Source: Dehalococcoidia bacterium (GTDB lineage: Bacteria; Chloroflexota; Dehalococcoidia; Bin125). Taken from it: a DNA stretch of 13,758 bases. This document shows positions 1 to 12,931 of the stretch, piece after piece; position 1 is the stretch's first letter, and every line of letters begins with the position of its first letter. The notes beneath the pieces were generated by a model. It did no database searches. It had not been told where the DNA came from and saw nothing but the letters and a program-made list of their open reading frames with translations. The stretch spans positions 1 to 13,758 of the forward strand of contig CAXXNO010000010.1 in the NCBI GenBank assembly GCA_963663235.2. Reading direction: 5' to 3'. A program made the translations under genes and the position numbers.

Positions 1-31
1 ACATGAGGACGATCGCGCAGCGCGATTGCAT
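1..31 (-). CDS. Possible 5' end of a CDS running off the left edge (MQSRCAIVLM...)
   Basis: ATG at 31 on the minus strand lies just downstream of a candidate sigma70 promoter (42-71); only 10 codons are visible. Confidence 0.25.
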   Translation of the reverse strand, partial: MQSRCAIVLM

Positions 32-41
32 AACGCCCCCG

Positions 42-71
42 AGCGTGCCACGCAGCCGCCAGTCCTGTCAA
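42..71 (-). promoter_or_regulatory. Candidate sigma70-type promoter pointing off the left edge
   Basis: Minus strand reads TTGACA (71-66), 18-nt spacer ending TGG, then CACGCT (47-42): a perfect -35 with a weak TG-extended -10. Confidence 0.4.
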
Positions 72-118
72 TCTTCGAAAAGGGAGGCAGGGCAAGAGCG
101 GAGAGAGCGTGTGGAATC

Positions 119-415
119 CTAGATCGTAATGCGCTCCTGGGCCAGGCCGTCCATGGCGAGCACCGTGCCGACACCCATGCACTGGAGTCCGAACTCCAGG
201 GCGGCCTGGAGAAGGGGGTCCGGAATGGCGGACCGTGGATCCGCCGCCAGAGCGGACTGGAGGAACATCTGGCTGAGGAGCACCTCCCAGATCTCCGCCT
301 CCGTGGCGGCCTCTAGGCGCAGCTTCTCGATCTGCGTCGCATACTTATCCGCCAGCTCGTTGTGGCGATCCACTCGCTGCTGCACCGCGCGCAACGTGAT
401 CTCGCGCTCTTCCAC
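119..415 (-). CDS. Small hypothetical protein, 98 aa, helical/coiled-coil-like (MEEREITLRAVQQRVDRHNELADKYATQIEKLRLEAATEAEIWEVLLSQMFLQ...)
   Basis: This is the protein-like tail of track ORF 119..1039, whose upstream part is an off-frame shadow of the aldolase gene. GTG at 415 follows GGGGGTG (SD-like); TAG stop at 119-121. Confidence 0.6.
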   Translation of the reverse strand: MEEREITLRAVQQRVDRHNELADKYATQIEKLRLEAATEAEIWEVLLSQMFLQSALAADPRSAIPDPLLQAALEFGLQCMGVGTVLAMDGLAQERITI

Positions 416-493
416 TTTGGCACCCCCAGATCCGTGACGGCCCGCGCCCGGAGCACGATGGCGGGTCGCGTCTAATGAATCGACGCGAGGGCG

Positions 494-529
494 CGCCTTC
501 GCATGGGGGTTTCCCCGAGCGCGGAGGCG
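494..529 (-). terminator. Stem-loop downstream of the aldolase/SDR stop (possible terminator or mRNA-stability hairpin)
   Basis: Minus strand CGCCTCCGCG-CTC-GGG-GAAA-CCC-CCA-TGCGAAGGCG forms an interrupted stem with a GAAA tetraloop; there is no U-tract. Confidence 0.3.
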
Positions 530-555
530 GAACGCACGCCAAATTGGGCGGCATA

Positions 556-2604
556 TCAGCGCGGGAAGGCCGCGGGCACGCCGCCATCGACGGTCAGCGT
601 GCAGCCCGTGATCTTGGCGGCGGCATCCGAGATGAGAAAGGCGACCGCGTCCGCCACATCCTCCGGGCTGATGGGCAGGCCCAGCAGGTTGCGCTTGGCA
701 TAGAACGCCTCGAGCGCATCTTCCGAGACGCCGTGGGCTTGCGCGCGACCCCGACGCACCTCCGGCGACCACAGGCGTGAGCCGCCGAAGACGGCGTCCG
801 GGTTGACCATGTTCACGCGGATGCCGGCATCGCCGCTTTCGAGGGCGAGCACCTTGGCGAGTTGCGTCTCGGCCGCCTTGGCGGCGCTGTAGGCGCCGAA
901 GTCGCCGCCGGGGGCGAAGGCGTTCTTGGAGGAGATGAAGACGACGCTCCCACCACGTCCCTGCCGGCGGAGGAGGCGCGCGGCGGCGCGCGCCGCGAGG
1001 AAGTGGCCTCTGGCGTTCACGGCGAAGCTGCGCTCCCAATCGGCCAGCGAGAGCGCGTCGATGCGAGAGACCACCGCGACCCCGGCGTTGGAGACGAGGA
1101 TATCCAGGCCGCCGTACTCCACCGCGAGAGCGGTCAGGCCTTCCTGGACCGAGCCCTCCTCGGTGACGTCCATAGCGATGGCCATGGCGGCGCGGGGGTG
1201 GGGCGCGCGATCCGAGATGGCGGCCGCGACCGCCTGCGCGCCCTCGGCATCGACATCGGCCACACCGACAACGGCACCGTCGCCGGCGAGCCGCTCCGCG
1301 ATGGCGCGGCCGATGCCGCCGGCCGCGCCGGTGACGAGCGCGATCTTGCCCTGGAGCGGCCGCGGCGGGGGCGCAAGCGTCAGCTTGTAGAGTTCCAGCG
1401 GCCAGTACTCGACGTCGAACAGGTCCGGCTCGGCGACGGGACGGTAATCGCCGACGGCGGTGGCATTGGCTTGCACCACGATGGTCCGGCGATAGACGTC
1501 TTGGGCGATGCGAGCGTCCTTCGTGCCGCGCGCGGCGGAGAACGCGCCCAGTCCGGGTACCAGGATGACGCGCGGATATGGATCCAGGCGGGGCGTGTCG
1601 GGAGCCGCGTAGCGGTCCACGTACTCCTCATAGCGCTGCGCGTAGAGGGCGACGGCATCGCGCACGTGTTGGTCAAGGGCGTCGGCGTCGGCGTCGGCGT
1701 GCGGGGGAAGGTCCACGAAGGCGGGCCAGCCCTTGGTGCGCAAGGCGTGATCGGGCGTCGCGGGGCCGCGCTGGGTCACCGTCGCCGCGAGCGGATCGGC
1801 GAGGAAGGCGAGCATCTCAGGCGAGCCGTCGTGGTCGATCACGACAGGGAAAGGGATGGCGCCGCGAATGGCGACGGCCGCGCGGGCGACGCGCTCGGGG
1901 TCGGGGGATGGTGGGGCCACCGCGGCGAAGTGTCGCGCGTCGGCGCGCGCCTCGGCGATGAACTGCTCCGCCTCCGTCACGAGGGCGATAGTGCGCTCGT
2001 AGGACGCGCGGGCGTCGTCGTCGAAGGTGAGGAGGCCGTGGTTGACGAAGGCCACGCCCTGGGCGGAGGGGTCCGCCTCCCAGGCCTGCGCCACCGCGCG
2101 CGAGAGGGCGAAGCCGGGCCGGACCCAAAGAACCACCGCCAAACGATTGCCGAACAGGCGCCGAAGCGTGGCGGGTCCGTCGGGCTGATTGGTGAGGGCC
2201 ACGATGGCATCGGCGTGGGTGTGATCGACAAAGCGGTGGGGTAGGAAGCCGTGCAGCAGCGTCTCGATGGAGGGGCGGGGGTCATCGGGATCGAAGAGGG
2301 CATGAGCGAGGTAGGCGACCATCTCGTCGTCGGACATCGAGGGCACATCGCGGAGGCGGCGGACATCGGCGAGGCGGACGCCGGCGAAGTGGCGGCGCTC
2401 GATGGTCTTGAGGTCGGAGCCGCTGCCTTTGACGCGGAGGACATCCACCCGATCGCCGCGGTAGTCGGTCTGGGTGAGTTTGACGGAGGTATTGCCGCCG
2501 CCCCAGAGAACGAGCGATTCCTCAGCGCCGATGAGACGGGAGGTGTAGACGCGGAGATCGAGGAGGTCGGTGGGGGCGTCGGCGTGGGACCAGCGGGAGC
2601 GCAT
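556..2604 (-). CDS. rhaD: Bifunctional rhamnulose-1-phosphate aldolase / short-chain dehydrogenase (RhaD/RhaEW-type), 682 aa
   Basis: Class II aldolase motifs GGGNTSVK, VKGSG, PSIETLLH, HTHAD, NHG; family linker EYWPLELYKL; SDR motifs TGAAGGIG, NAG, YSAAK, TVDGG. True start is ATG 2604 (MRSRWS); the track extension to 3279 is not protein-like. Confidence 0.93.
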   Translation of the reverse strand: MRSRWSHADAPTDLLDLRVYTSRLIGAEESLVLWGGGNTSVKLTQTDYRGDRVDVLRVKGSGSDLKTIERRHFAGVRLADVRRLRDVPSMSDDEMVAYLAHALFDPDDPRPSIETLLHGFLPHRFVDHTHADAIVALTNQPDGPATLRRLFGNRLAVVLWVRPGFALSRAVAQAWEADPSAQGVAFVNHGLLTFDDDARASYERTIALVTEAEQFIAEARADARHFAAVAPPSPDPERVARAAVAIRGAIPFPVVIDHDGSPEMLAFLADPLAATVTQRGPATPDHALRTKGWPAFVDLPPHADADADALDQHVRDAVALYAQRYEEYVDRYAAPDTPRLDPYPRVILVPGLGAFSAARGTKDARIAQDVYRRTIVVQANATAVGDYRPVAEPDLFDVEYWPLELYKLTLAPPPRPLQGKIALVTGAAGGIGRAIAERLAGDGAVVGVADVDAEGAQAVAAAISDRAPHPRAAMAIAMDVTEEGSVQEGLTALAVEYGGLDILVSNAGVAVVSRIDALSLADWERSFAVNARGHFLAARAAARLLRRQGRGGSVVFISSKNAFAPGGDFGAYSAAKAAETQLAKVLALESGDAGIRVNMVNPDAVFGGSRLWSPEVRRGRAQAHGVSEDALEAFYAKRNLLGLPISPEDVADAVAFLISDAAAKITGCTLTVDGGVPAAFPR

Positions 2605-2610
2605 GGGCGC

Positions 2611-2616
2611 ATGGTA
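2611..2616 (-). promoter_or_regulatory. -10 box for a leaderless aldolase/SDR transcript
   Basis: Minus strand TACCAT-gcgccc-ATG: a TAnnnT hexamer 6 nt before the start codon, with no SD sequence. Confidence 0.55.
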
Positions 2617-2732
2617 GCGAGCGCGCCGCGGCGCGGCGCACGGCGGCATCGAGCGGTGGCGCCTGCTGATCGTTGACGATGCCTTCGAGTTGCTGGGCCT
2701 GCCGCTCGCCGACGGGTGAGTTGCGGGGCACT

Positions 2733-2813
2733 TTTCTGTCACCCCCTTCGCGCCGCTCACCAGATGGGAAGGCGGCCAGCCGTGCGCCGCCAGCGGCCAG
2801 GGGGCGACAGAAA
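2733..2813. repeat. Imperfect inverted repeat resembling IS termini (MITE-like or two abutting IS ends)
   Basis: The reverse complement of 2733-2747 (AGGGGGTGACAGAAA) matches 2799-2813 (AGGGGGCGACAGAAA) at 14/15, with a 51-nt spacer. Confidence 0.6.
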
Positions 2814-3021
2814 GGGACGCCGGTCGAGCGGGCCTGGACAGGCCTCGGTCAGGCCGGCGGCAGGCGGCGGCCAGGGGTCGGACAGGCGGGGTGGCGGCGC
2901 GGGGGCAGTGGGGGCCGATGGTTGCTGGGATGGGGGAAGCAGACGGCGGCGCACGCATCCACAGGGAAGTGCGAAACGCCGCATCCCCCGCATCTCGCCG
3001 CGGCGGCCGCCACCGCACGGC

Positions 3022-3231
3022 TACACCGAGAGCCTCTACGCGACCCGCCAGTCGATTGAGCGGTGCTTCTCTCGGTTGAAGGGCCATCGGACGCTCGATA
3101 CCCATTGTCGGCGCGGGCTGCGGAGAGTGCGGCTGCATGTGCTGATGTCGGTGCTGGCCCTGCAAGCGGGGACGGTGGTGGCCCTCGACCGGGGTGAGAA
3201 CGTGCGTGCCTGCACCCGCAAGGTGGCCTGA
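3022..3231 (+). pseudogene. C-terminal fragment of an IS1182/IS5-like DDE transposase
   Basis: LYATRQSIERCFSRLKGHRTLDTHCRRGLRRVRLHVLMSVLALQA has the Y-x2-R-x3-E-x6-K (YREK) signature and the RGL..V..H tail. The upstream part of track ORF 2716..3231 is not transposase-like, so the 5' boundary is approximate. Confidence 0.75.
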
Positions 3232-3237
3232 CTCATT

Positions 3238-3260
3238 CCCGCTCCAGATGACTGAGCGGG
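3238..3260. terminator. Hairpin between two convergent ORF ends
   Basis: CCCGCTC (3238-3244) pairs with GAGCGGG (3254-3260); it lies between the stops at 3231 (+) and 3276 (-). Confidence 0.35.
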
Positions 3261-3275
3261 CGTAGGAGGAGCTCA

Positions 3276-3696
3276 TCACGAACGAGGCTCCCCTTCATCC
3301 TCCGTCGCAGGGTCAGCCTCAAACGCAACCTCGCGCGCTCCCCCCGAAGGAACCTGCACGGGATTGACTCCGATGCGGATCAGGCCGCTCCACGCCTTGC
3401 AGCACCGCAATTTGACAGTGAGAGGGATTCGGTCGCCTTTCTTCTTTCGCACGTCAGGGAACCGCAACCCGGTAGTCCGTTGGGGGGTATATGAAGAGCC
3501 TCCATCGGCCTTCAGGTCAGTAATCTGAATGATGCTGCTGTCGGGCGTTCCGATCCCGTCACTCTCAACAAGGGAAACGATAATCAGATGGAGCGCGATG
3601 GTGCGGGTGAATTGCACCGTAAGCGATGCCTCACTACCCGTGACTGAAACTGGACCGACGAGCTTGAATGCGATTCGAGCAGCGCGCCATCGGAGG
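3276..3696 (-). pseudogene. 3' portion (~139 codons) of a hypothetical beta-rich protein gene with its 5' end lost at the IS3 boundary
   Basis: Open frame LRWRAARIAFKLVGPVSV...EGEPRS runs up to the IS end; the track start at 3770 lies inside the IS. GC is about 57% over 3361-3660 by hand count. Confidence 0.5.
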
Positions 3697-3763
3697 TGAC
3701 CTGCCCCCCCAGAACCGGTCCAGATCCTGTGCGAGGATTCGGGCCGGTGCGAAGGGAGTCGGC

Positions 3764-4042
3764 ATGGCACGCAAGCGGTACGCGGCCGAGGAGATCATCG
3801 GCCACCTGCGGGAGGCGGAGGTGGTGCTCGCGCAGGGGGAATCGGTCGCGCCGGTCGCGCGCCGCCTCGGCGTGGCCGAGCCAATGTATTACCGCTGGCG
3901 GCGGGAGGACGGGGGGCTGCGGGTCGACCAGGCCAAGCGGCTGAAAGAACGGGAGCGCGAGAACAGTCGGCTGAAGCGGGTGGTGGCCGATCAGGCGCTG
4001 GCCAACGCGATGGTGCGGGACGGCGCAGCGGGAAACTTCTGC
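3764..4042 (+). pseudogene. IS3 transposase OrfA (HTH), degenerate; ancestral stop codon apparently lost
   Basis: MARKRY..EEII..LREAEV.LAQG...YYRWRRE.GGLRVDQAKRLKE.ERENSRLKRVVADQAL...GNF with SD AAGGGAG upstream. The usual GNF-stop reads TGC at 4040-4042, so the frame runs on to 4183. Confidence 0.88.
4030..4036 (+). other. Programmed -1 ribosomal frameshift site G_GGA_AAC
   Basis: X XXY YYZ heptamer at the OrfA/OrfB overlap; the -1 frame continues KLLRPAKRRRA...VSERRAC, typical of IS3 OrfB. Confidence 0.8.
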
Positions 4043-4908
4043 GCCCGGCCAAGCGGCGCCGGGCGACATCCTACCGCACGGACCCGTACGCGGTGTCGGA
4101 GCGGCGGGCCTGCCCGGTCACCGGCCAGGCGCGGGCGACCCAGCGCGACGTGCCCCGGCCGTCCCCGGATGAGCCGGCGCTGATCGCGCGCAGCGTCGCG
4201 CTGGCCACCCGCTTCGGCCACTACGGCTCCCGTCGCATCACGGCCCGGCTGCGCCAGGCGGGCTGGCGGGTGAACCCCAAGCGGGTCGAGCGGCTCTGGC
4301 GTCAGGAAGGCTGGCGGGTCCCCGGGAAGCACCCCCAACGGGGCCGCCGCTGGCTCGCGGCCGGCTCGCTGGTGCGGCGGCGGGCCGAGCGGCCGGCCCA
4401 CGTCTGGTCCGACGCCTTCGTCTTCGACCGCACCGCCGAGGGGCGCCCGGTGCGGATCCTCGCCATCGTGGATGCGTACACCCGCGAGGGCCTGCGTCTC
4501 GACGTCGCCCGCCGACGGCGCCGCGACGACGGCCTGGCGCGGTTGGCCCAGCTGTTCGTCGAGCGCGGGCCGCCGACGTTTCTGCGGTCCGCCAACGGCC
4601 CGGCGTGCACCGCCACCGCGGTGCGGGACTGGCTGCACCGGGTCGGGGGCACGCCCCTCTTCATCGAACCGGGCAGGCCTTGGGAGAACGGCTCTGGGGA
4701 ATCGTTCAACGGCAAGCTGCGCGACGCGTGCCTCAATCGCGAGCGCTTCGACACCCTGCTGGAAGCCCAGATCCTCATCGAGGGCTGGCGGCGGGAGGAC
4801 AACCCGATCCGCCCCCACCGTGCCCTCGGCTACCGCCCCCCCGCCCCGGAAACGCAGCAACCCCGGGAACGTCCCATGACGCGCGTCCCGGCGATCGGAC
4901 TAACTTAA
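4030..4908 (+). pseudogene. IS3 transposase OrfB (rve/DDE integrase core), catalytically dead
   Basis: Recognisable VSERRAC, KRVERLWRQEG, PWENG.GESFNGKLRD and RPH.ALGYRPP. The first two catalytic Asp are Ala (WSDAF, GCC 4414; RSANG, GCC 4591); the Glu at 4699 is kept. Confidence 0.9.
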
Positions 4909-4937
4909 CGACTGGTACAACGATCGGGGGCAGGTCA

Positions 4938-5860
4938 CTGCCCCATGCGTCGCGGTCGTAGTCGTCGCCCGTGCAAGGGGCGGCGGTGAGCACGGAATCC
5001 GGCGCAGGCTCCAGCGGGATCGTCTGCGCGCGCGGGGAGACGACCCAGAGGAAGTCGTCCGCTTCCAGATCGAAGGATGGACTGATTCCCGGGATGTAGG
5101 AGTGCGACCAAGCGCGGCCATCCCAGCGCCAGACGATCGTCACGTCGTGGAAGACCGTCGCCACAGGCGTCGCTGGACTGTGCCAGTGAAGGAACTGGCC
5201 GCCCTCCTTGAGCTGGATGGTCTGTGGGGCAGGGGGATCGTGGGCGGTTGCGGGGAGGAACTCGATGGTGGCGACGCCGTCGTTGGTGGTGAGTAGGAAT
5301 TCGCGCCCCACCAGATTCACCGCATCGAGGGCGTCGTTCACGCCATCGGCGACGGCATCCTCCATCGCGCTGGTGAGAAAGCCGGGGAGGCTGCCGGCAT
5401 CGACGTCGGTGATGGTGACGACGGGATGTTCGCCGCTGAAGTCGATGGCGCCGGTGAGGCGGACGTTGATGTCGGGGAGGATCGCGATCGCCAGTTTCCC
5501 CGTGGCCTCGATCTCATCGCCGGAGAGGCAGATGGTCACGTCGCGAATCTCCTGGACGTCTTCGGCGCGCAGGAAGTCCCGCGCGCGAGCGGTTAGGTCA
5601 CTTTCGTCGAACGAAACCGAGGTGGAGCGCCCACGAGCGTCGATGCGGACGTTGAAGTTCTCCCAGCGATCGTCGAAGTGAACCAGCGTAGCCGGGTCGC
5701 GGTCGATCGGCCGGTCGTCGCAGGCATCGGCGAGGCCGGGGCCGCCGATGAAGAGGAGGGCCAGCATCACGACGATGAAGATCGCGATGGCGGCGAGCAC
5801 GGCACCGATCAGCGCCACCAGCGTGACGACGCTGTAGAGGACTTCCCAACGAACGTCCAT
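4938..5860 (-). pseudogene. Membrane-anchored extracellular protein, 3'-truncated by IS3 (about 307 native codons)
   Basis: N-terminal hydrophobic helix (VVTLVALIGAVLAAIAIFIVVMLALLFIGG), acidic alpha/beta domain, Trp-rich small domain. Native sequence ends at YDRDAWGS and reads into the IS to a stop at 4775. ATG 5860 is preferred over GTG 5890. Confidence 0.75.
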
Positions 5861-6008
5861 CTGCGGCCGTTCCCCGCCGGACGCCGCCACACGCCGCGGA
5901 GCGGCCTCGTCGCGGTCTCAGCGTTCATCCAGCGCTTTGCCGTACGATACGGGGGAAGTCGCCGACGGGCTAGGCGGGCGCGATCGACCGTGGCGAGGGC
6001 GCGCAGAC

Positions 6009-6479: not shown

Positions 6480-9400
6480 ATGCCCCTCGTCGTCGAACGG
6501 CTGCCGACCCTGGAAGCGGCGGAGGAATGCCTGAGCGCATTCGTGGGCTCCGTGCAGACGGAGCCCATAGCGCGGGTCAACGTGCTCACGGGGTCCAACG
6601 CGCAGCGGATCTACTTTCGGCGTACGTTGGGCCGCCACCTGGGGGCGACCGCGAACGTCCGCTTCTCCACCCCGATCGACCTAGCGAGCGAGGTCCGTCG
6701 CGCGGCCGCTCCGCCCGCGCGGCTGCCCCTGCCGGACGGGGGCGACATCCTGGTGCTAGCCGGCCTGATGCGCGAGCTGCGGGAGTCGCGGCGCCTGACG
6801 CGGCTGGACCCCGAGATCCAGGGCGTGCCGGAAGCCGTGCTGGGATCGATCACCGACCTGCGCGAAGGGGGCGTGAGCGCCCAAGAGTTCGCCGGTGCGC
6901 TGCGGCGGCAGGACGAGCGGAAACTGCACGAGTTGAGCGCGATCTACCGCGCGCTGGAAGAAGGCACGCCGTTCCTGGACCGGCCCGGCATCTACCAGGA
7001 CGCGCTGGACCCGCGTGTGAGCGACGAGGCCGTGCGCGAAGCGCTGGGGAGCGGGCCGCTGGCGGTCATCGGGCTGTACGACGCGACGCCGGTGCAGGTC
7101 GCCCTCATCCAGCGCTGCGCGCAGGTGACGCCGGTGCGCGCGCTGGTGGTCGCGCCCGCAGCGCCGGAGTTCGCGTTTGCCCAGCGGTTCGCGGAAACGC
7201 TGGAGGCCGCAGGCACGGCCCCGGCGTCGAGCGAGGAGGCGGGGGATCAGTTGTCGGGGGAGTTCGATGGGCGGCTAAGCCTGGCGCACTTCAGCGCGCC
7301 GACGCGGCAAGCGGAGGCGGAGGCGATCGCGCGTCGGATCCTGGCGCTGGCGCGGGAGCAGGGTGTTGCGTTCGACGAGATGGCCGTGCTGCACCGCCTG
7401 GATCACGGGTACGACGACCTGCTCACGGCAGTGCTGGAGCGGGCGGGCGTGCCGGTCTATCGAGGGGGCGGGCTCCCGGTGCGGCACTCCGCGGCGGGGC
7501 GCGCGGTCCTGGTCCTGCTGGACCTGCTCCTGGAGACGCCGACGCGGCACCGCCTGCTGGAGTTCCTGGCCAGCCCCGCCCTGCGTCCAGCGATACCGCC
7601 TGGCGTCACGCCCCAGCCCGTGCGCTGGGAGCGGGTGTCCAAGAAAGCGGGGATGGTGCGGGAGTGGGAGCGGTTCGGTGGCCAAGTCGAGGCGCACATC
7701 GAGTCGCTGGAAAAGGCGGAAACCAGCAGCGGCGAAGCGGAGGCCGCCCGCGGGCTGCGGGACGTCGTGCGAGGGCTGCACACCGCCGCGGCCGCGTGCG
7801 ACGGACTGGCGACATGGGCCGACTACAGCGCGTGGTTCGTGGAGACGATGGACGCATACCTCGCGAGCGGTGAGGGCGAGGCAGAGTCGCTCGCGGCCGC
7901 CCGGGGGCGGATTGAGGCGCTGGCGCAGCTGGACCGCGCAGAGCTGGGCGTGGACGCATCGCGCTTCCGGCAGACGGCGGCGCGCGCCGTGCGCCGGGCG
8001 CTGCTGTCCGGCGGCTACTTCCAGCGAGACGGCGTCTTTGTGGGGAACGTCGTGGCCGCGCGGTCGTTGCGGTTTCAAGCGGTGTTCCTGGCGGAGTGCG
8101 CCGAGCGGATCTTTCCGCCGCTGATCCGGCAGGACCCGCTGCTGCTGGACGGAGAGCGGGAGCAGATCAACCGACGACTGGGGCATGTAGCGTTGCCGCT
8201 GAAACGCGAGCGTCAGCAAGAAGAGGAGATGCTCTTCGCGCTGGTGCAGCAGAGTGCGAGGCGCTTCCTGACCCTGTCCTGGGCCCGGCGCACCAGCGCC
8301 AGCGGTGCACCGCGGCTGCCCTCGACGTACCTGCTGGAATCGGTGCCAGGCGATTTCGACGAGCTGGCGCGAGTCGACGACCTGGTGGAGCAGGGACGGA
8401 TCCAGCGCCTGCCCGCGCGCCTGGCGGGGGCAGCGCCCAGCACAGAGGCGATCGCAGCGGGCGACTGGAGCGCCACGGCGCAGGCGCTGGACGAGTCTGA
8501 CTTCAGACTGGCGGTGCTGGCAGCCGCACCGCACGTCGCGCCGCGGCTGCTGCGGGAGTTGTGGGCCGGGTACGAACGGTACGAACGGGCGCGGGCGAGC
8601 CGGAACGAGGCGCGATTCGGCGAGTACGACGGCGTGTTCGACGCGGAAGCGGCGCCCGGGGACCTGCTGAAGCAAGCGACAACGCCCACAGAGCTGGAGA
8701 CGTACGCCACCTGCCCGTACCGCTACTTCATGAAGCGTGTGTTGAACGTCGCGGCGGTCCCGGAGCCGGGCGAGGCGCTGGAGATGACCCCGCTGGACCG
8801 AGGGACGCTGGTGCACGCGATCCTGGAGCGCTGGGTGCGGGACGCCATCGACGAGCAGGCCGACTGGCCCACCTACCTGCGCAACCACGAGCAGCTGATG
8901 CAGATTGCGCAGGAGGAGTTCGCGCGGGCCGACTTGAGGGGGCTGGCGGGCCACGCGGCATCGTGGAACGTGATGCGCGAGGAGATCCTGGGCGACTTGG
9001 AGCGCGTGCTGAAAGCGGAGCGGCAGCGAGCAGAGGCGGGCTACCGGCCGGAGCGGGTCGAGATGCGCTTCCAAGACGTGGACATCCCCCTTCCCGACGG
9101 CACCAGCCTGCGCTTCAGCGGCCGGATCGACCGGGTGGACCGGGGCCCCGAAGGGCTGGTGGCGACGGACTACAAGACGGGGAGCGTGCGCAAGCAGGCG
9201 GCGGACTATGTGAGCGGAGCGGCGTTGCAGCTGCCGATCTACCTGCGGGCCGCGGCCCACGAGTTCGGCGTGGAGGCATCGACGGTGCGGGCCGAGTACT
9301 GGTACGCCACCCGGAAAGGCAACTTCACACGCAGCGGCCTCTCCGGGGCCGACATCGAGCGGGACGACGCCCTGGGGACCGTGCTGGCGACCATCAGCGA

Positions 9401-9584
9401 AGGGATCCGCGCCGGGCGCTTCTTTCCTTATCCCGGGCGCGGCAGCCGGCGACGGCCCAACTGCACCTACTGCGACTATCTGCCCGTCTGCGCCACCGAC
9501 GTGGACCGTCGGTTTGACGCAAAACAGCGGCAGGACCAAGCGACGGTGCGCGACTTCCTGACCCTCCAGGCGCGGCGGCCATGA
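6480..9584 (+). CDS. addB: AddB/RexB-like subunit: inactive helicase-like scaffold plus C-terminal PD-(D/E)XK nuclease with Fe-S cluster, 1034 aa
   Basis: Nuclease motifs RGTLVHAILE, GRIDRVD, TDYKTG, LQLPIY; four Fe-S cysteines in CPYRYF and CTYCDYLPVC; helicase remnants (AEAEAIARRI, MAVLHR, EEMLFALV); no Walker A; overlaps the next gene by ATGA. Confidence 0.88.
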   Translation: MPLVVERLPTLEAAEECLSAFVGSVQTEPIARVNVLTGSNAQRIYFRRTLGRHLGATANVRFSTPIDLASEVRRAAAPPARLPLPDGGDILVLAGLMRELRESRRLTRLDPEIQGVPEAVLGSITDLREGGVSAQEFAGALRRQDERKLHELSAIYRALEEGTPFLDRPGIYQDALDPRVSDEAVREALGSGPLAVIGLYDATPVQVALIQRCAQVTPVRALVVAPAAPEFAFAQRFAETLEAAGTAPASSEEAGDQLSGEFDGRLSLAHFSAPTRQAEAEAIARRILALAREQGVAFDEMAVLHRLDHGYDDLLTAVLERAGVPVYRGGGLPVRHSAAGRAVLVLLDLLLETPTRHRLLEFLASPALRPAIPPGVTPQPVRWERVSKKAGMVREWERFGGQVEAHIESLEKAETSSGEAEAARGLRDVVRGLHTAAAACDGLATWADYSAWFVETMDAYLASGEGEAESLAAARGRIEALAQLDRAELGVDASRFRQTAARAVRRALLSGGYFQRDGVFVGNVVAARSLRFQAVFLAECAERIFPPLIRQDPLLLDGEREQINRRLGHVALPLKRERQQEEEMLFALVQQSARRFLTLSWARRTSASGAPRLPSTYLLESVPGDFDELARVDDLVEQGRIQRLPARLAGAAPSTEAIAAGDWSATAQALDESDFRLAVLAAAPHVAPRLLRELWAGYERYERARASRNEARFGEYDGVFDAEAAPGDLLKQATTPTELETYATCPYRYFMKRVLNVAAVPEPGEALEMTPLDRGTLVHAILERWVRDAIDEQADWPTYLRNHEQLMQIAQEEFARADLRGLAGHAASWNVMREEILGDLERVLKAERQRAEAGYRPERVEMRFQDVDIPLPDGTSLRFSGRIDRVDRGPEGLVATDYKTGSVRKQAADYVSGAALQLPIYLRAAAHEFGVEASTVRAEYWYATRKGNFTRSGLSGADIERDDALGTVLATISEGIRAGRFFPYPGRGSRRRPNCTYCDYLPVCATDVDRRFDAKQRQDQATVRDFLTLQARRP

Positions 9585-12500
9585 CCGGCGTCGCGCCCAG
9601 CGACCAGGCGCCCAGCGACCAGGCGCCCAGCGACCAGGCGGTGCGCGAGGCCGCGATGCGCGACCTGGACACGTCGATCTTCCTGCGGGCGGGCGCGGGC
9701 ACAGGCAAGACATCGGTGCTGGTGGGGCGGGTGGTGGAAGCGGTGCGCCGGGGCCGGGCGGAGCTGCGGGAGATCGTCGCGATCACGTTCACAGAGAAGG
9801 CGGCGGGTGACCTGCGCGACCGCGTGCGGCGGGAGCTGTACGAGGCGTTGCGGTCCGCGGACGCGGTGGAAGCGGAGCGGCTGCGTCGCGCCCTGCAACA
9901 GGTCGACGGCGCGCACATCGAGACGATCCACGCGTTCGCATCGAGCCTGCTGCGGGAGCGGCCGCTGGAGGCAGCGCTGGACCCGAACTTCACCGTGCTG
10001 GACGCCGTGGGCGCGCAGCTGACGTTCGAACAGGCGTGGCAGGACTGGCTCTGGTCCGAGGAGGAGGCGGAGGCGCGCCCCCGCATCGAGCGGTGCCTGC
10101 GCCTGGGGCTGCCGCTGGAGACGCTGCGCACGCTGGTCTCGCGGATGGCGGAGACGCGCGACGTGAACCCGCAGCAGACGGTGACGGAACCGGAGGCAGC
10201 GGCTTCGGTTCACACAGCGCTGCGAGCGGAGGCGAAGTCGCTGCGCGAGCGGGCCGAGGACCTGGGGCCGACGGTGGTGGAGCAGGCGCAGCAGGTGCTG
10301 GAGCGGCTGGAGGCGATGTCGGGGCTGCCCGAGGCCGCACTGGAGGCGGAGCTGAGCACCCTGGTACTCCCGCGGGCGCGCCTGGGCCGGCGGAAGGGCG
10401 AGGCGCGACTGCGCTACGAAGAGGTGTGGGAGCGGCTGGAGGAGCGGTTGCGGCGCTTCGCGGAGGGGACGCGGACGGCGGCGCTGGCGGCATTTATCGA
10501 GGTGGCGTACCAGTTCGTCCAGCGGAATGCGGTGGAGCGTCGCCGGCAGGGGAAGCTGACGTTCGAGGATCTGCTCATCAACGCGCGCGACCTCCTGGCC
10601 GGCGAGGCGCGGGTGCGGGGCTACTTCCGCGAGCGCTACAAGTTCCTGCTGATCGACGAGTTCCAGGACACCGATCCGCTGCAGACGGAGATCGTGCTGC
10701 TGCTGGCCGCGCAGACCAGGAGCATCGAGCGGGGGGAGATCACGCTGACGCCGGGGCGGCTGTTCGTCGTGGGCGATCCGAAGCAATCGATCTACCGGTT
10801 CCGGCGCGCGGACATCGACAGTTACGCCGAATTGGAGGAGATCTTCCGACGGCAAGAGGCGAGCGAGGCAAAAAGCGCACGGGTCGACGAACTGGAAGTG
10901 AACTTTCGCTCGCGGCCGGAGATGGTGGCCTGGCACAACCAGGTCTTCCAGACACTGATCCAGCGCACGCCGGACTTTCCCCACGCGCAGCCGGACTACC
11001 AGCCGCTCACACCGCACCGCCGGGACGAAGGCTTCGGCGTGATTCACCTGCTGCCCAATACCGGCGTGGACTGGCGGACCATCGGCGAGGCGCGGGCGGA
11101 CGAAGCGCGGGCGATCGTGCGGTTCATCGAAACGGTGGTGGGGACGGATGAGCTATCGATCGCGATCCCCGATGCGGACGCGCCGGGTGGCAGCCGGCCC
11201 CCCCGGTATCGGGACATTTGCCTGCTCGTGCGCAACCGGACCGCAATCGAGATCTACACCGAAGCGCTCGAGGCGGCCGCGATCCCCTACCACCTGGACA
11301 GCGGCCGGAGCTTCTTCCTCCAGCAAGAAACGCGCGACGCCGCCGCGATCCTCACGGCGCTGGACGATCCATCGGACGAAGTGGCGGTCGTGGCGACGCT
11401 GAAGAGCGCGCCGTTCGCCGCGTCCGACGCAGAGCTGCTGGCCTACGCGCGGGCCGGGGGCCGCTTCCGGCTGAGCGAGGAGGCGATCCCGCGCGAATAC
11501 CAAGGACCGCTGCGCGAGGTCTTGCAGTCGCTGCTGGACCTGAAAGAGCGCAAGGGGAGCATGTCGCTGCCGGCGTATGTGGACTACGTGCTGCGTGCCA
11601 CCCACATGCTGGAGATCCAGCTGGCGCGGAAGAGCGCGCAGCGGGCCGCCAATCTGCAGATGATCGTCCAGCGGGCGGCCGACTTCGCCGGGAATGAAGT
11701 CGACTCCCTGCGGCCGTTCGTGCGCTGGCTGGGGACGCAAACGCGCACAGACCTAGGCGAAGCGGAATGGCCGGTGACCGAAGTGGAAGAGGACGTGGTG
11801 CGGATGCTCACCATCCACCAAGCCAAGGGGCTGGAGTTCCCCATAGTGGTGCTGACGAAAGTGGCCGCCGCGAACGCGCCGGACCGCAGCGTGGCCGTAG
11901 TCAACCGGGAGAGCGCGACGATCGACTTCCAGGTGGGGCGGGCCGGGCAGCGGTTCCAAACGCCGGGCTATGGGGCGGCCCAGGCGCGGCAGAAGCGCTA
12001 CGAAGCGTCGGAGGAACGGCGGTTGCTGTACGTGGCGGCGACACGAGCGCGCGACTACCTGGTGGTGCCAGCCTTCTATACCGATCGCGTGCTCGGATAC
12101 CACGCCGACCTGGAAGAGGCGCTCCCAGGCTGGCTGAACCGGGATTATGAAGTGGACGCGCCGGGCGCCGTGAACCTGCGCGTAGAACAGCTAGTGCAAG
12201 CGCGGCGCGTCAGCGAGCGGCCGGCCGCCCCGGACCTGCCGGCGCTGCGCCAGGACTGGGCCGCAAGCCGGGAGGCCGGGCTGGCAGCAGGCGCATCGCA
12301 GCGGCGGTACGTCACGCCCTCGCGGCTGGGACACGACCGAAGCAAGGAGCCGCGGGAGTCGGAGCCGAGGGACCGGTCGATCGAGGAGGTGGACCGCAGC
12401 ATCGCCAGCGCGCAGGGCGGACCGCTGGAAGGCGCGGAGGTGGCCGACGGCCCGCCGGTCGCCGGGGGAGCGGGGGACGGGCGTGACCTGGGGACGGCGA

Positions 12501-12931
12501 TCCACGACGCGCTCCAGATCGCGGAGTTGCACGACGTCGAAGCGTCGGTGTGGCGGGCGCGGAACCTGTGCATCGAACGGGGGAGCGAGAGCCTGGCGGA
12601 CGACGTAGAGCAGAACCTGCGCACGACGCTCAGCAGCGAGCTGTTCGGCCGGGTGCGGGCCGCCGAGCGGATCGAGCGCGAGTTGCCGCTGGTGCGGGTG
12701 GATGCGGACGAAGTGATTGAAGGGTACGTGGACCTGGTCTTTCGAGAGGCGGAGGGCTGGGTGCTGGTGGACTACAAGAGCGACCGGGAGCCGTCGCCGC
12801 AGACCATTGAAGGATACGAAGCGCAGATTCGCGCCTATGTCGAGGCGTTCCGGGGCACGGGCGAGCCGGTGACAGGCGCGTACCTGCTGTTCACCGGCAG
12901 CGGCGCGGCGCGGGCGGTGGCGGTGGAGTAG
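9581..12931 (+). CDS. addA: AddA-like SF1A (UvrD-family) helicase with C-terminal RecB-type nuclease, 1116 aa
   Basis: AGAGTGKT, ITFTEKAA, TIHAF, LIDEFQDT, VGDPKQSIYRFRRAD, NFRS, LTIHQAKGLEFPIV, EERRLLYVAATRA; nuclease GTAIH, EGYVDL, VDYKS, QIRAY. Confidence 0.92.
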   Translation: MTGVAPSDQAPSDQAPSDQAVREAAMRDLDTSIFLRAGAGTGKTSVLVGRVVEAVRRGRAELREIVAITFTEKAAGDLRDRVRRELYEALRSADAVEAERLRRALQQVDGAHIETIHAFASSLLRERPLEAALDPNFTVLDAVGAQLTFEQAWQDWLWSEEEAEARPRIERCLRLGLPLETLRTLVSRMAETRDVNPQQTVTEPEAAASVHTALRAEAKSLRERAEDLGPTVVEQAQQVLERLEAMSGLPEAALEAELSTLVLPRARLGRRKGEARLRYEEVWERLEERLRRFAEGTRTAALAAFIEVAYQFVQRNAVERRRQGKLTFEDLLINARDLLAGEARVRGYFRERYKFLLIDEFQDTDPLQTEIVLLLAAQTRSIERGEITLTPGRLFVVGDPKQSIYRFRRADIDSYAELEEIFRRQEASEAKSARVDELEVNFRSRPEMVAWHNQVFQTLIQRTPDFPHAQPDYQPLTPHRRDEGFGVIHLLPNTGVDWRTIGEARADEARAIVRFIETVVGTDELSIAIPDADAPGGSRPPRYRDICLLVRNRTAIEIYTEALEAAAIPYHLDSGRSFFLQQETRDAAAILTALDDPSDEVAVVATLKSAPFAASDAELLAYARAGGRFRLSEEAIPREYQGPLREVLQSLLDLKERKGSMSLPAYVDYVLRATHMLEIQLARKSAQRAANLQMIVQRAADFAGNEVDSLRPFVRWLGTQTRTDLGEAEWPVTEVEEDVVRMLTIHQAKGLEFPIVVLTKVAAANAPDRSVAVVNRESATIDFQVGRAGQRFQTPGYGAAQARQKRYEASEERRLLYVAATRARDYLVVPAFYTDRVLGYHADLEEALPGWLNRDYEVDAPGAVNLRVEQLVQARRVSERPAAPDLPALRQDWAASREAGLAAGASQRRYVTPSRLGHDRSKEPRESEPRDRSIEEVDRSIASAQGGPLEGAEVADGPPVAGGAGDGRDLGTAIHDALQIAELHDVEASVWRARNLCIERGSESLADDVEQNLRTTLSSELFGRVRAAERIERELPLVRVDADEVIEGYVDLVFREAEGWVLVDYKSDREPSPQTIEGYEAQIRAYVEAFRGTGEPVTGAYLLFTGSGAARAVAVE
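9593..9640 (+). repeat. Perfect 15-bp tandem repeat, 3.2 copies (GCGCCCAGCGACCAG), encoding (APSDQ)3
   Basis: Three identical copies at 9593, 9608 and 9623, plus GCG. Confidence 0.95.

Follow-up and report, generated by a model that had tools for sequence, protein, structure and literature searches.

Bacterial insertion sequences (IS) are held to be controlled by deletion, selection and regulation of transposition, and not by targeted point mutation. Repeat-induced point mutation (RIP) of fungi, the work of a cytosine methyltransferase-like enzyme, introduces C:G to T:A transitions at CpA in any duplicated sequence and over the whole repeat. In diversity-generating retroelements (DGRs), A is replaced by any base, on a single strand of a variable repeat of ~100 bp, the template being copied by reverse transcriptase. 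A strict A:T>C:G spectrum is the signature of mutT loss and 8-oxo-dGTP, which pairs opposite A and is turned into a fixed change through MutY. One study describes Pol IV-dependent A>C changes that arise via misincorporated oxidised guanine nucleotides, favour a 5'G and/or 3'C context and lead to Ala and Gly (PMC12318082), and another gives 5'-A*A as the preferred context in E. coli mutT (bioRxiv 10.1101/2022.10.21.513255). Full-text literature searches yielded no report of transversion-specific hypermutation in any bacterial IS.

The window, i.e. the whole stretch of 13,758 nucleotides analysed here, carries an IS3-family element inserted in a host gene. The features of the locus, with the basis of each in brackets, are as follows.

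3276..3696, minus strand: C-terminal part of the IS-interrupted host gene (ORFs)
3539..3696, no strand assigned: 158-bp host segment adjoining the left IS end (haplotype comparison)
3697..4937, plus strand: hypermutated non-autonomous IS3-family (IS407-like) element (copy search, Pfam, comparison with the inferred ancestor)
3697..3708, plus strand: left terminal inverted repeat TGACCTGCCCCC (same in 12/12 full copies)
3764..4042, plus strand: orfA (HTH_Tnp_1), stop TGA changed to TGC via A>C at 4042
4030..4036, plus strand: GGGAAAC heptamer, shortly 5' of the orfA stop (sequence; frames in intact isoforms)
4045..4908, plus strand: orfB with HTH_21, rve and rve_3 (open frame, Pfam)
4926..4937, plus strand: right terminal inverted repeat GGGGGCAGGTCA (ends of full copies)
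4938..5890, minus strand: N-terminal part of the IS-interrupted host gene, without Pfam family (ORFs, Pfam)

The element has the architecture expected of the IS3 family. Pfam assigned HTH_Tnp_1 to orfA (2.2e-16) and HTH_21, rve and rve_3 to orfB (7.5e-21), i.e. a helix-turn-helix orfA and an RNase-H-like DDE orfB; orfB lies in the -1 frame and overlaps the end of orfA, both in the window and in the intact isoforms L120 and C14, and the terminal inverted repeats read 5'-TG...CA-3' in 12/12 full copies. From its end sequence, the element probably belongs to the IS407 group. Because orfB is in the -1 frame, the GGGAAAC heptamer is likely the slippery site of a programmed frameshift. With the orfA stop lost (TGC, 4040-4042; C at 4042 in 5/15 own copies), the orfA frame reads through to 4183, and the orfB frame is stop-free from 3700 up to the TAA at 4906-4908. 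The first and second catalytic Asp codons of orfB have become GCC (Ala) at 4414-4416 and 4591-4593, through D>A changes at 4415 and 4592, and the catalytic Glu is kept within GESFNG. Judged by its broken DDE triad, the window copy is a dead derivative of the IS3 family. An intact isoform with matching terminal repeats is present in the same genome (C14:~9760-10955) and could mobilise the dead element in trans.

An earlier sequence-only reading of this DNA had described intact ends, open frames and no indel, and for the window copy this was borne out. The window copy is atypical in being without a frameshift, since 14/15 own copies spanning the site, plus most relatives, do carry a +C frameshift (GAGGACCAC vs GCGTA-CAC). 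Open frames are nearly automatic under hypermutation, as A>C/T>G changes make stops only from TAT or TTA. Matching flanks of the kind left by a 3-5 bp target-site duplication were found in 0/12 full hypermutated copies, whereas an 85% isoform does have such a duplication, GACTC. When crossovers were considered as the cause of the missing duplications by a flank-swapping test, left-right 4-mer matches numbered 3 vs 1.1 expected.

Exact removal of the IS would leave the host gene in frame (953 + 421 nt = 1374 nt, by coordinate arithmetic). The 158-bp segment beside the left IS end occurs once in the genome, and the allelic haplotype, as seen at the end of contig C12 and in contigs from runs X1 and X2, lacks it. 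Pfam shows the flanking AddA, AddB and aldolase-SDR genes to be intact, as the sequence-only reading had it; the transposase fragment that it placed nearby was not found, and 8 further window ORFs, within the subset of ORFs scanned, had no Pfam match. The RNA runs X19 and X20 contained just 5-6% of the sampled words.

The own genome (G000) holds 12 full and 5 partial copies of the IS at 97-98% identity. Among 65 family genomes, the >90% type occurs only in G000 and in G003, which belongs to another genus and carries the nearest less-mutated relative, copy G3a, 95.6% identical to the window copy. A third genome, G005, bears the same signature in an independent lineage, G5_80, which is a single copy today. 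A homologue search with the mutated OrfB returned distant named relatives only, the best being a Dehalococcoidia MAG with 77% over half the protein, and a right-end word search of metagenome contigs returned 26 loci, of which only 4 were close relatives (85-88%), with ordinary spectra.

The substitution spectrum of this family is nearly pure. From G3a to the consensus of the 17 own copies, 55/55 differences were A<>C/T<>G, 48 of them A>C or T>G. From G3a to the window copy there were also 55 differences (T>G 24, A>C 20, C>A 6, G>T 3, C>T 1, G>A 1), i.e. 44 A>C/T>G, 9 in the reverse class and 2 transitions; for 53/55 in the A<>C/T<>G class and a background of 17%, binomial p=1.7e-38. The near-pure A:T>C:G pattern proposed by the sequence-only reading holds against a true relative and is stronger than first described. 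Its individual changes were checked against G3a, the 85% isoforms and the intact isoforms, and those at 3908 (TAC>GAC), 3951 (CTG>CGG), 4002 (GAC>GCC), 4042 (TGA>TGC), WSYD>WSDA (4411, 4415), SDNGPEF>SANGPAC (4592/4604/4607), ENGYV>ENGSG (4694/4697) and RDE>RDA (4727) are real A>C/T>G changes. CAA>CCA at 3881 did not arise in this lineage, since less-mutated relatives also encode Pro there. The one exception that had been noted, ACG>ATG, is a private C>T at 3885, but it is not the only one: the window copy has a second private transition, G>A at 4220.

Against the inferred ancestor, the window copy has 40 A>C/T>G and 9 other changes, with 11% of A/T sites affected. The 117 polarised events comprise 42 A>C and 39 T>G (81 together), with 9 in the reverse class, and the two strands are affected alike (42/193 A sites vs 39/169 T sites); the family thus shows the one-directional A:T to C:G change on both strands that is typical of MutT loss. 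At conserved A/T sites of G5_80, 53/62 changes of A were to C. The burden per copy was 40-52 changed sites in the own genome with its 17 copies vs 7-15 in the genome with 5 copies, a copy-number trend that comprises two genomes only.

This spectrum is confined to the element. The A<>C/T<>G class made up 1989/2378 mismatches (84%) among own IS copies vs 243/1458 (17%) in other repeats of the same genome at >=93% identity, and 17-25% when haplotype bubbles were considered together with other repeats. A 955-bp element with about 6 copies at 99.6-100% identity in the same genome had no such bias; hence homology between copies is not sufficient by itself. Two 85% isoform copies in the own genome are dead and have an ordinary spectrum. 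The window copy and the C12 copy form an allelic pair that has the right junction and a 3.5-kb flank in common: 461 bp of IS differed at 7 A<>C/T<>G sites and 1 transition, whereas 0/11 substitutions in the flank fell in this class (Fisher p=1.6e-4). Fourfold sites retain 8-13% A+T, intergenic DNA has 59-69% GC and the genome 68-70% GC. In 4 public runs, each from a different study, assembled contigs repeated these polymorphic sites with changes of the same class at 19/21, 17/19, 27/30 and 25/29 places, and include stretches that match the window exactly across derived sites, e.g. 4479-4648 at depth 96; the comparison covers contigs and not raw reads, and studies from one campaign may lack full independence. 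Based on the repeats, flanks, composition and multi-study contigs, we reject both a global mutation bias and an assembly artefact, and we regard element-restricted A:T-to-C:G hypermutation as almost certainly real.

Within the element the changes are unevenly spread. In the first 100 bp, 0/32 A/T sites were mutated in any copy, and in the non-coding ends 1/37, while the centre had 60/189 mutated sites vs 21/173 in the outer thirds (p=8e-6). The density falls off gradually toward both ends, and the same dome shape is repeated in the independent lineage G5_80. At mutated A, 5'T and 3'G were favoured and 5'A and 3'T avoided (i.e. AA and AT contexts); beyond -1/+1, no motif within +/-6 nt and no local GC effect were found. 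Third codon positions were mutated at 3/34 sites vs 77/291 for first and second positions (p=0.02). By context, 25% of GAC, 38% of GAG and 44% of TAC sites were mutated. The same site recurred across independent lineages (25/72 vs 28/212 sites), and the catalytic-motif positions 4415, 4604, 4607 and 4727 were mutated in parallel. Such recurrence in independent lineages shows real hot spots.

Alleles are exchanged or re-created in place among the IS copies and assort almost freely. After one sister copy was dropped, linkage was raised within 30 bp and at the shuffled level past 30 bp. A<>C/T<>G alleles were mostly shared (44/50), whereas other changes were mostly singletons (13/19; p=1e-5), and all 7 alleles of the allelic pair also segregate among other IS copies. 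A +C/T>G patch is common to copies and the 85% isoform and is missing in the window copy and G3c. Given the hot spots, parallel mutation, and not conversion, may account for part of this pattern. In one composite, a truncated hypermutated IS and the G3_75-type copy nested in it were mobilised together, after which 3 class changes arose in its 820-bp hypermutated part vs 0 in the 1241-bp nested IS (p about 0.06).

The mechanism that we tentatively favour is patchy resynthesis during copy interactions, with oxidised dGTP placed opposite A and short-tract conversion. Homologous copies would interact in ectopic gene conversion or in heteroduplex repair, and their interiors would be resynthesised repeatedly in short patches, in which a low-fidelity polymerase would put 8-oxo-dGTP opposite A. 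A MutY-type adenine glycosylase would then excise the A and fix a C:G pair, and very short conversion tracts, possibly C:G-biased, would carry the alleles between copies. The ends might be preserved because a patch requires homology to its left and to its right, and because only copies whose ends are sound stay mobilised. Judged by the spectrum, 8-oxo-dGTP is a reasonable candidate for the chemistry of the changes. Genes for a DinB-like polymerase (C6:243629-244066), Fpg, MutS and a MutY-like catalytic domain of 248 aa (C12:439751-440377) are present in the genome, together with 6 Nudix matches, none of which lies above the TIGR00586 (MutT) cut-off, which only 3/14 control genomes pass. Against resynthesis in patches stand the signature of G5_80 despite its single copy and a neighbour preference unlike published contexts.

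Several candidate sources of the context were tried and set aside. Sites with the 5'G and/or 3'C of the Pol IV GXC context were mutated at 55/232 vs 26/128 for other sites (odds ratio 1.2, p=0.51). For T>G after G runs, as reported in bioRxiv 10.1101/2022.10.28.514265, 3'C in the A orientation was not enriched (30/130), and SBS17-like T>G at CTT is the opposite of the pattern here, where T before T is depleted. An imuB-dnaE2 cassette adjoins one IS copy. As a common cause it was discarded, since the search for ImuB across the 64 other genomes of the family gave no close orthologue (best 33-40% identity); with none in G003 or G005, the cassette cannot account for all three genomes.

Changes could instead be coupled to transposition, by error-prone copy-out replication with oxidised dGTP and transposase supplied in trans, altering the donor or the new copy, with the IS ends retained via selection for mobility. 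Such coupling would fit changes that end exactly at the IS borders and are equal on both strands, their restriction to this IS group in three genomes, the perfectly conserved ends of 12/12 full copies and the presence of an intact isoform with identical terminal repeats. We nevertheless hold it to be unlikely. In G003, four G3_75 isoform copies, of the same IS group and with conserved catalytic motifs, are 100% identical, implying at least 3 transpositions without change in 1241 bp; the moved composite gained class changes in its hypermutated part only (3 vs 0; p about 0.06); the allelic pair diverged in place without transposing; and the density declines gradually to both ends instead of dropping in the repeats alone.

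It is also possible, although we doubt it, that a family-wide pathway singles out the transposon group and disables its copies where they stand, through interior A:T-to-C:G changes; if true, this would be a prokaryotic counterpart of RIP/APOBEC-type genome defence with new chemistry. A dedicated host system would recognise the IS group by sequence, guide or transposition intermediates and mutate it to kill the transposase, playing in bacteria the part of RIP or APOBEC editing. Compatible with this are the limitation of the signature, across three genomes from a single bacterial family, to one IS group, the parallel loss of catalytic residues (4415, 4604, 4607, 4727) in independent lineages, the sparing of flanks and of the nested foreign IS, and a rate >50 times the ordinary substitution rate of the same DNA (0/55 non-class changes). 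We consider a dedicated system decidedly unlikely: no candidate enzyme or guide was identified, the two closely related dead 85% copies in the same genome are not hypermutated, the G003 G3_75 copies with conserved catalytic motifs are untouched, and context by itself predicts parallel changes in catalytic codons (sites mutated: GAC 25%, GAG 38%, TAC 44%). We know of no enzyme chemistry for direct A:T to C:G conversion. Three CRISPR spacers are present at C4:37333-37600. The sequence-only reading had suggested a RIP-like process aimed at repeated or mobile DNA; confinement to one IS group, up to its borders and in three genomes, stands, but the process does not behave like RIP. Targeting of the IS is supported as a description, compatible both with a defence and with a by-product of repair or recombination, so that the sequence-only interpretation is partly supported as a whole.

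Repeated entry of variants from a MutT-deficient donor or mobile replicon, followed by recombination, is very unlikely. The IS word depth in metagenomes is 20-150 times the flank depth, which exceeds 17 copies per genome and hence indicates that other carriers exist, and G000 and G003 have polymorphic sites in common (15/26 vs 51/292). Yet a donor in which 11-14% of neutral A/T sites had been altered would be crippled throughout its genome, as many as 17 independent entries are implausible, and a genome-wide mutator leaves the spared ends and clean flanks unexplained. No donor was seen among the 65 family genomes, in which the >90% type is limited to G000 and G003, and one exact 33-nt left-end word had no match in JGI metagenome contigs.

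The other suggestion of the sequence-only reading, an extreme GC-driving spectrum of the whole genome, which weak MutT function might cause and which would be visible only without selection, as in a dead IS, was unsupported, and we judge it extremely improbable. No Nudix match reaches the MutT cut-off (0/6, yet only 3/14 control genomes do so), the genome has 68-70% GC, and changes fall mostly at first and second codon positions, as if released from selection. However, the class accounts for 0/11 substitutions in the 3.5-kb flank vs 7/8 in the adjacent IS, and for 17% of mismatches in other repeats (17-25% with haplotype bubbles) vs 84% among IS copies. A 95% A:T>C:G spectrum would push fourfold and intergenic GC above 95%, where 8-13% A+T and 59-69% GC were observed, and the dead 85% copies have an ordinary spectrum and the IS ends are spared.

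The chance of a sequencing, assembly or polishing artefact in the repeat is negligible: some platforms are prone to T>G and A>C errors, and the assembly is metagenome-like, with haplotype bubbles and contigs ending inside IS copies, but the same sites and class appear in the contigs (not raw reads) of the 4 public runs, the signature occurs in two other genomes, and the changes are consistent by codon with known conserved residues.

What is new is a transposon family changed at 11-14% of A/T sites by one transversion class in three genomes, next to adjacent DNA and other repeats with an ordinary spectrum. This implies either an unknown element-directed mutator or DNA synthesis during repeat interaction that is far more mutagenic and specific than assumed. 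It bears on mobile-DNA decay, on local GC enrichment and on how metagenomic mutational signatures are interpreted. It may also bear on natural chemistry for A-to-C or T-to-G editing; to our knowledge, there is no natural enzyme for such editing.

Compared with known systems, the element resembles the IS407-like group in its HTH orfA, its DDE orfB in the -1 frame past GGGAAAC and its TG...CA ends with TGACCTGCCCCC, and differs in that two catalytic Asp are gone, as is the stop of orfA, and that 12/12 full copies lack a target-site duplication. Like MutT deficiency, the changes are strictly A:T to C:G and equal on both strands, and they resemble Pol IV-dependent A>C changes in leading to Ala and Gly (PMC12318082). 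MutT deficiency acts genome-wide, whereas the changes here are confined to one IS group and end at its borders, with flanks, other repeats and base composition unaffected; the neighbour preference also differs from the 5'-A*A of E. coli mutT and from the 5'G/3'C that P. aeruginosa Pol IV prefers. GC-biased gene conversion shares the non-tree-like distribution of alleles among dispersed copies and the high frequency of C/G alleles, but a class-specific mutational input is needed as well, because biased conversion of ordinary mutations cannot give 55/55 in one transversion class. DGRs likewise direct mutation at adenines within a defined segment; unlike them, the IS is changed from A to C only (53/62 in G5_80) and not to any base, on both strands, over 1 kb and in many dispersed copies. 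Unlike RIP, the changes are A:T to C:G transversions and not C:G to T:A transitions, leave other long similar repeats untouched (17% vs 84%, >=93% identity) and spare the repeat edges (0/32 in the first 100 bp; 1/37 in the non-coding ends). What the element does share with fungal RIP is that dense point mutation of a single class kills repeated mobile DNA while unique flanks are spared.

Judged from its sequence, the window element has the anatomy of the IS3 family, of which it is an ordinary dead member; its end sequence provisionally places it as IS407-like. Its parts and host locus are:

3697-4937: insertion sequence (IS), both ends perfect (TGACCTGCCCCC left, GGGGGCAGGTCA right)
start 3764: orfA, matching HTH_Tnp_1 (Pfam)
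-1 frame, behind a GGGAAAC heptamer: orfB, matching HTH_21, rve and rve_3 (Pfam)
4938-5890 and 3276-3696, minus strand: host gene split by the IS

The flanking genes (an aldolase-SDR fusion, AddB, AddA and also REC-GGDEF) are intact by Pfam, as the sequence-only reading had held for addA, addB and rhaD motifs. The transposase fragment it placed nearby was not found among the part of the window ORFs scanned for Pfam. The GC content of the IS is 74-77%, compared with ~60-75% in the window outside it. GC skew was positive over most of the window, and fourfold sites of the window genes (556-3279 and 6480-12931) were strongly asymmetric between strands: plus-strand genes had ~60% G and 30% C, mirrored in minus-strand genes.

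Changes were checked against real relatives in place of the consensus first used. The source genome, G000, assembled as 14 contigs (2.75 Mb), has 12 full and five partial copies with 97-98% identity. An 85% isoform occurs there twice and an intact 75% isoform once. At none of the 12 full copies was a target-site duplication seen, in contrast to the 85% isoform with its GACTC. On contig C6, two copies in opposite orientation have 165 bp of flank in common (94.5% identity), which hints at IS-mediated rearrangement, and a small CRISPR-like array (C4:37333-37600, four 37-nt repeats and three spacers) lies near an 85% copy. The nearest less-mutated copies, among them G3a and G3c, were in G003, a genome of the same family but another genus, and were 95.6% identical with 71% GC. 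G003 also carries a 75% isoform, G3_75, at C1:2186-3426 and in three further copies, 100% identical; its orfA and orfB lie in one frame with a lone TGA between them (GNF*ARRQ) and no -1 frameshift.

From G3a to the window copy we counted 55 differing sites, mostly T>G (24) and A>C (20), then C>A (6), G>T (3) and a single C>T and G>A each, and the consensus of the G000 copies also differed from G3a at 55 sites, 55/55 being A<>C or T<>G (hereafter, the class). The codon changes first listed from the sequence, including both catalytic Asp to Ala replacements and loss of the orfA stop, were borne out by the relatives, except that CAA>CCA at 3881 is no change of the window lineage. The open frames are uninformative, because A>C and T>G changes can hardly make stops. 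A +C frameshift was present in 14 of 15 G000 copies; within the group, the window copy and one other alone lack it. A two-change patch at 4475-4479 and equivalents (a T>G change with insertion of a C, GAGGACCAC) occurs in the 85% isoform as well as in the hypermutated family, and is missing from the window copy and G3c; it reflects either very short conversion or recurrent templated mutation. At 4411-4412, nine full copies have GA and three have TC in place of the ancestral TA; neither TA nor GC occurs. One change at a TpA step seems to preclude the other. Codon positions differing between G3a and the window copy were mainly first and second, whereas distant isoforms showed ordinary changes, mostly at the third.

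Polarised with a few outgroups over two genomes that are kin and not independent, 81 of 117 events in G000 and G003 were A>C or T>G (42/193 A sites, 39/169 T sites). The G000 copies carried 40-52 class changes each, or 11-14% of A/T sites, and the G003 copies 7-15. The ends were spared, with 0/32 sites changed in the first 100 bp and 21/173 in the outer parts versus 60/189 in the centre, and third codon positions changed less often (3/34 versus 77/291 at the others). Linkage between sites, with one sister copy dropped, was raised below 30 bp and at the shuffled level beyond. Class alleles were mostly common to several copies (44/50), while other changes were mostly singletons (13/19).

A separate hypermutated lineage, G5_80, occurs as a single copy (80% identical, 74% GC) in a third genome, G005. 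It is the second of two isoforms in tandem, 4 bp apart (C1:578532-581016); the first is ordinary. At conserved A/T sites G5_80 showed 53 A>C or T>G versus nine other changes, again with spared ends. In the wider set including it, 73% of sites with 5'T, 47% with 3'G, 20% with 5'A and 12% with 3'T were changed, and only immediate neighbours had an effect. Its changed sites overlap those of G000 and G003 (25/72 versus 28/212, odds ratio 3.5), hence moderate hot spots exist. These would be too weak for the dearth of singletons in G000, which would require ~400-fold differences between sites, and copy exchange would also be needed.

The stretch was present in 20 public runs from 11 studies. In contigs from four runs of four studies, class polymorphisms fell at the same sites in 19/21, 17/19, 27/30 and 25/29 places, and some pieces were identical to the window through derived sites; this evidence consists of contigs, not raw reads, from studies that may belong to one campaign. 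Such same-site, same-class polymorphisms led us to reject an artefact. The four-run contigs comprise two haplotypes of one insertion, with the right junction 4937|4938 in common, parted at left by a 158-bp segment (3539-3696) unique in G000; in the assembly, one is represented by the window contig and the other by the terminal part of C12. Window 1-3696 and C12:467335-471332 are 99.6% identical alternative haplotypes, with the 158-bp indel falling precisely against the left end of the IS; the tetranucleotide CTGC stands at 3535-3538 and again immediately after the IS at 4938-4941. The 3538 bp of common flank differed by nine transitions and two C<>G changes, with no class change, and the IS, over its first 461 bp, by seven class sites and one transition (IS versus flank, p=1.6e-4). 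All seven class alleles occur in other copies too, so either conversion brought them in or they arose anew at hot spots. A composite in G003, a truncated hypermutated copy with a nested IS, lies at two unrelated loci; its three differing sites were all in the class and within the 820-bp hypermutated part, with 0 in the nested 1241-bp IS.

A genome-wide A:T>C:G spectrum, the first explanation offered from the sequence, is excluded by the ordinary state of other DNA. The class made up 1989/2378 mismatches in 143 alignments among G000 copies at 95% identity or more, and 243/1458 in all other G000 repeats of at least 93% identity, where transitions and C<>G dominate; distant isoforms were ordinary, fourfold sites of neighbouring genes kept 8-13% A+T, and intergenic DNA had 59-69% GC.

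The chemistry is most simply fitted by 8-oxo-dGTP opposite A, fixed by MutY-type processing, a route established in mutT strains. Pol IV makes A>C changes from misinsertion of oxidised guanine nucleotides (PMC12318082). We tentatively favour patchy resynthesis, since the changes affect the interior of one repeat family only, arise in place, are linked at short range and rise with copy number in the two genomes compared. Copies would interact and their interiors be resynthesised in patches, during which 8-oxo-dGTP would enter opposite A before MutY-type processing fixed the change. Against this, other multi-copy repeats are untouched, G5_80 is now single-copy, and the neighbour context fits neither the published Pol IV nor the published mutT context. 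Mutation during copy-out replication in transposition is less likely, given that the four G3_75 copies are identical and the nested IS of the G003 composite is unchanged. Also less likely is a dedicated host defence against this IS group, for which no candidate factor was found and which would have spared the related dead 85% isoform.

The sole MutY-like gene of G000 (C12:439751-440377) codes for a catalytic domain of 248 aa, with a score of 206.6 bits against a cut-off of 286.5 and apparently without the C-terminal 8-oxoG-recognition domain. A 9.3-kb segment, present twice with 99.6% identity (C12:54196-63477 and C9:139293-148579, locus L101), directly adjoins an IS copy. It encodes a tyrosine integrase, an ImuB-like Y-family polymerase of divergent sequence (440 aa) and a DnaE2-like Pol III alpha of 1085 aa, and resembles a mobile mutasome cassette. 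No close orthologue of the ImuB turned up in 64 other genomes of the family.

No counterpart to element-restricted hypermutation was found in the literature searched. On the defining tests of RIP and of the mutT signature the hypermutated IS departs from each, although its outcome is like that of RIP and its chemistry like that of mutT.
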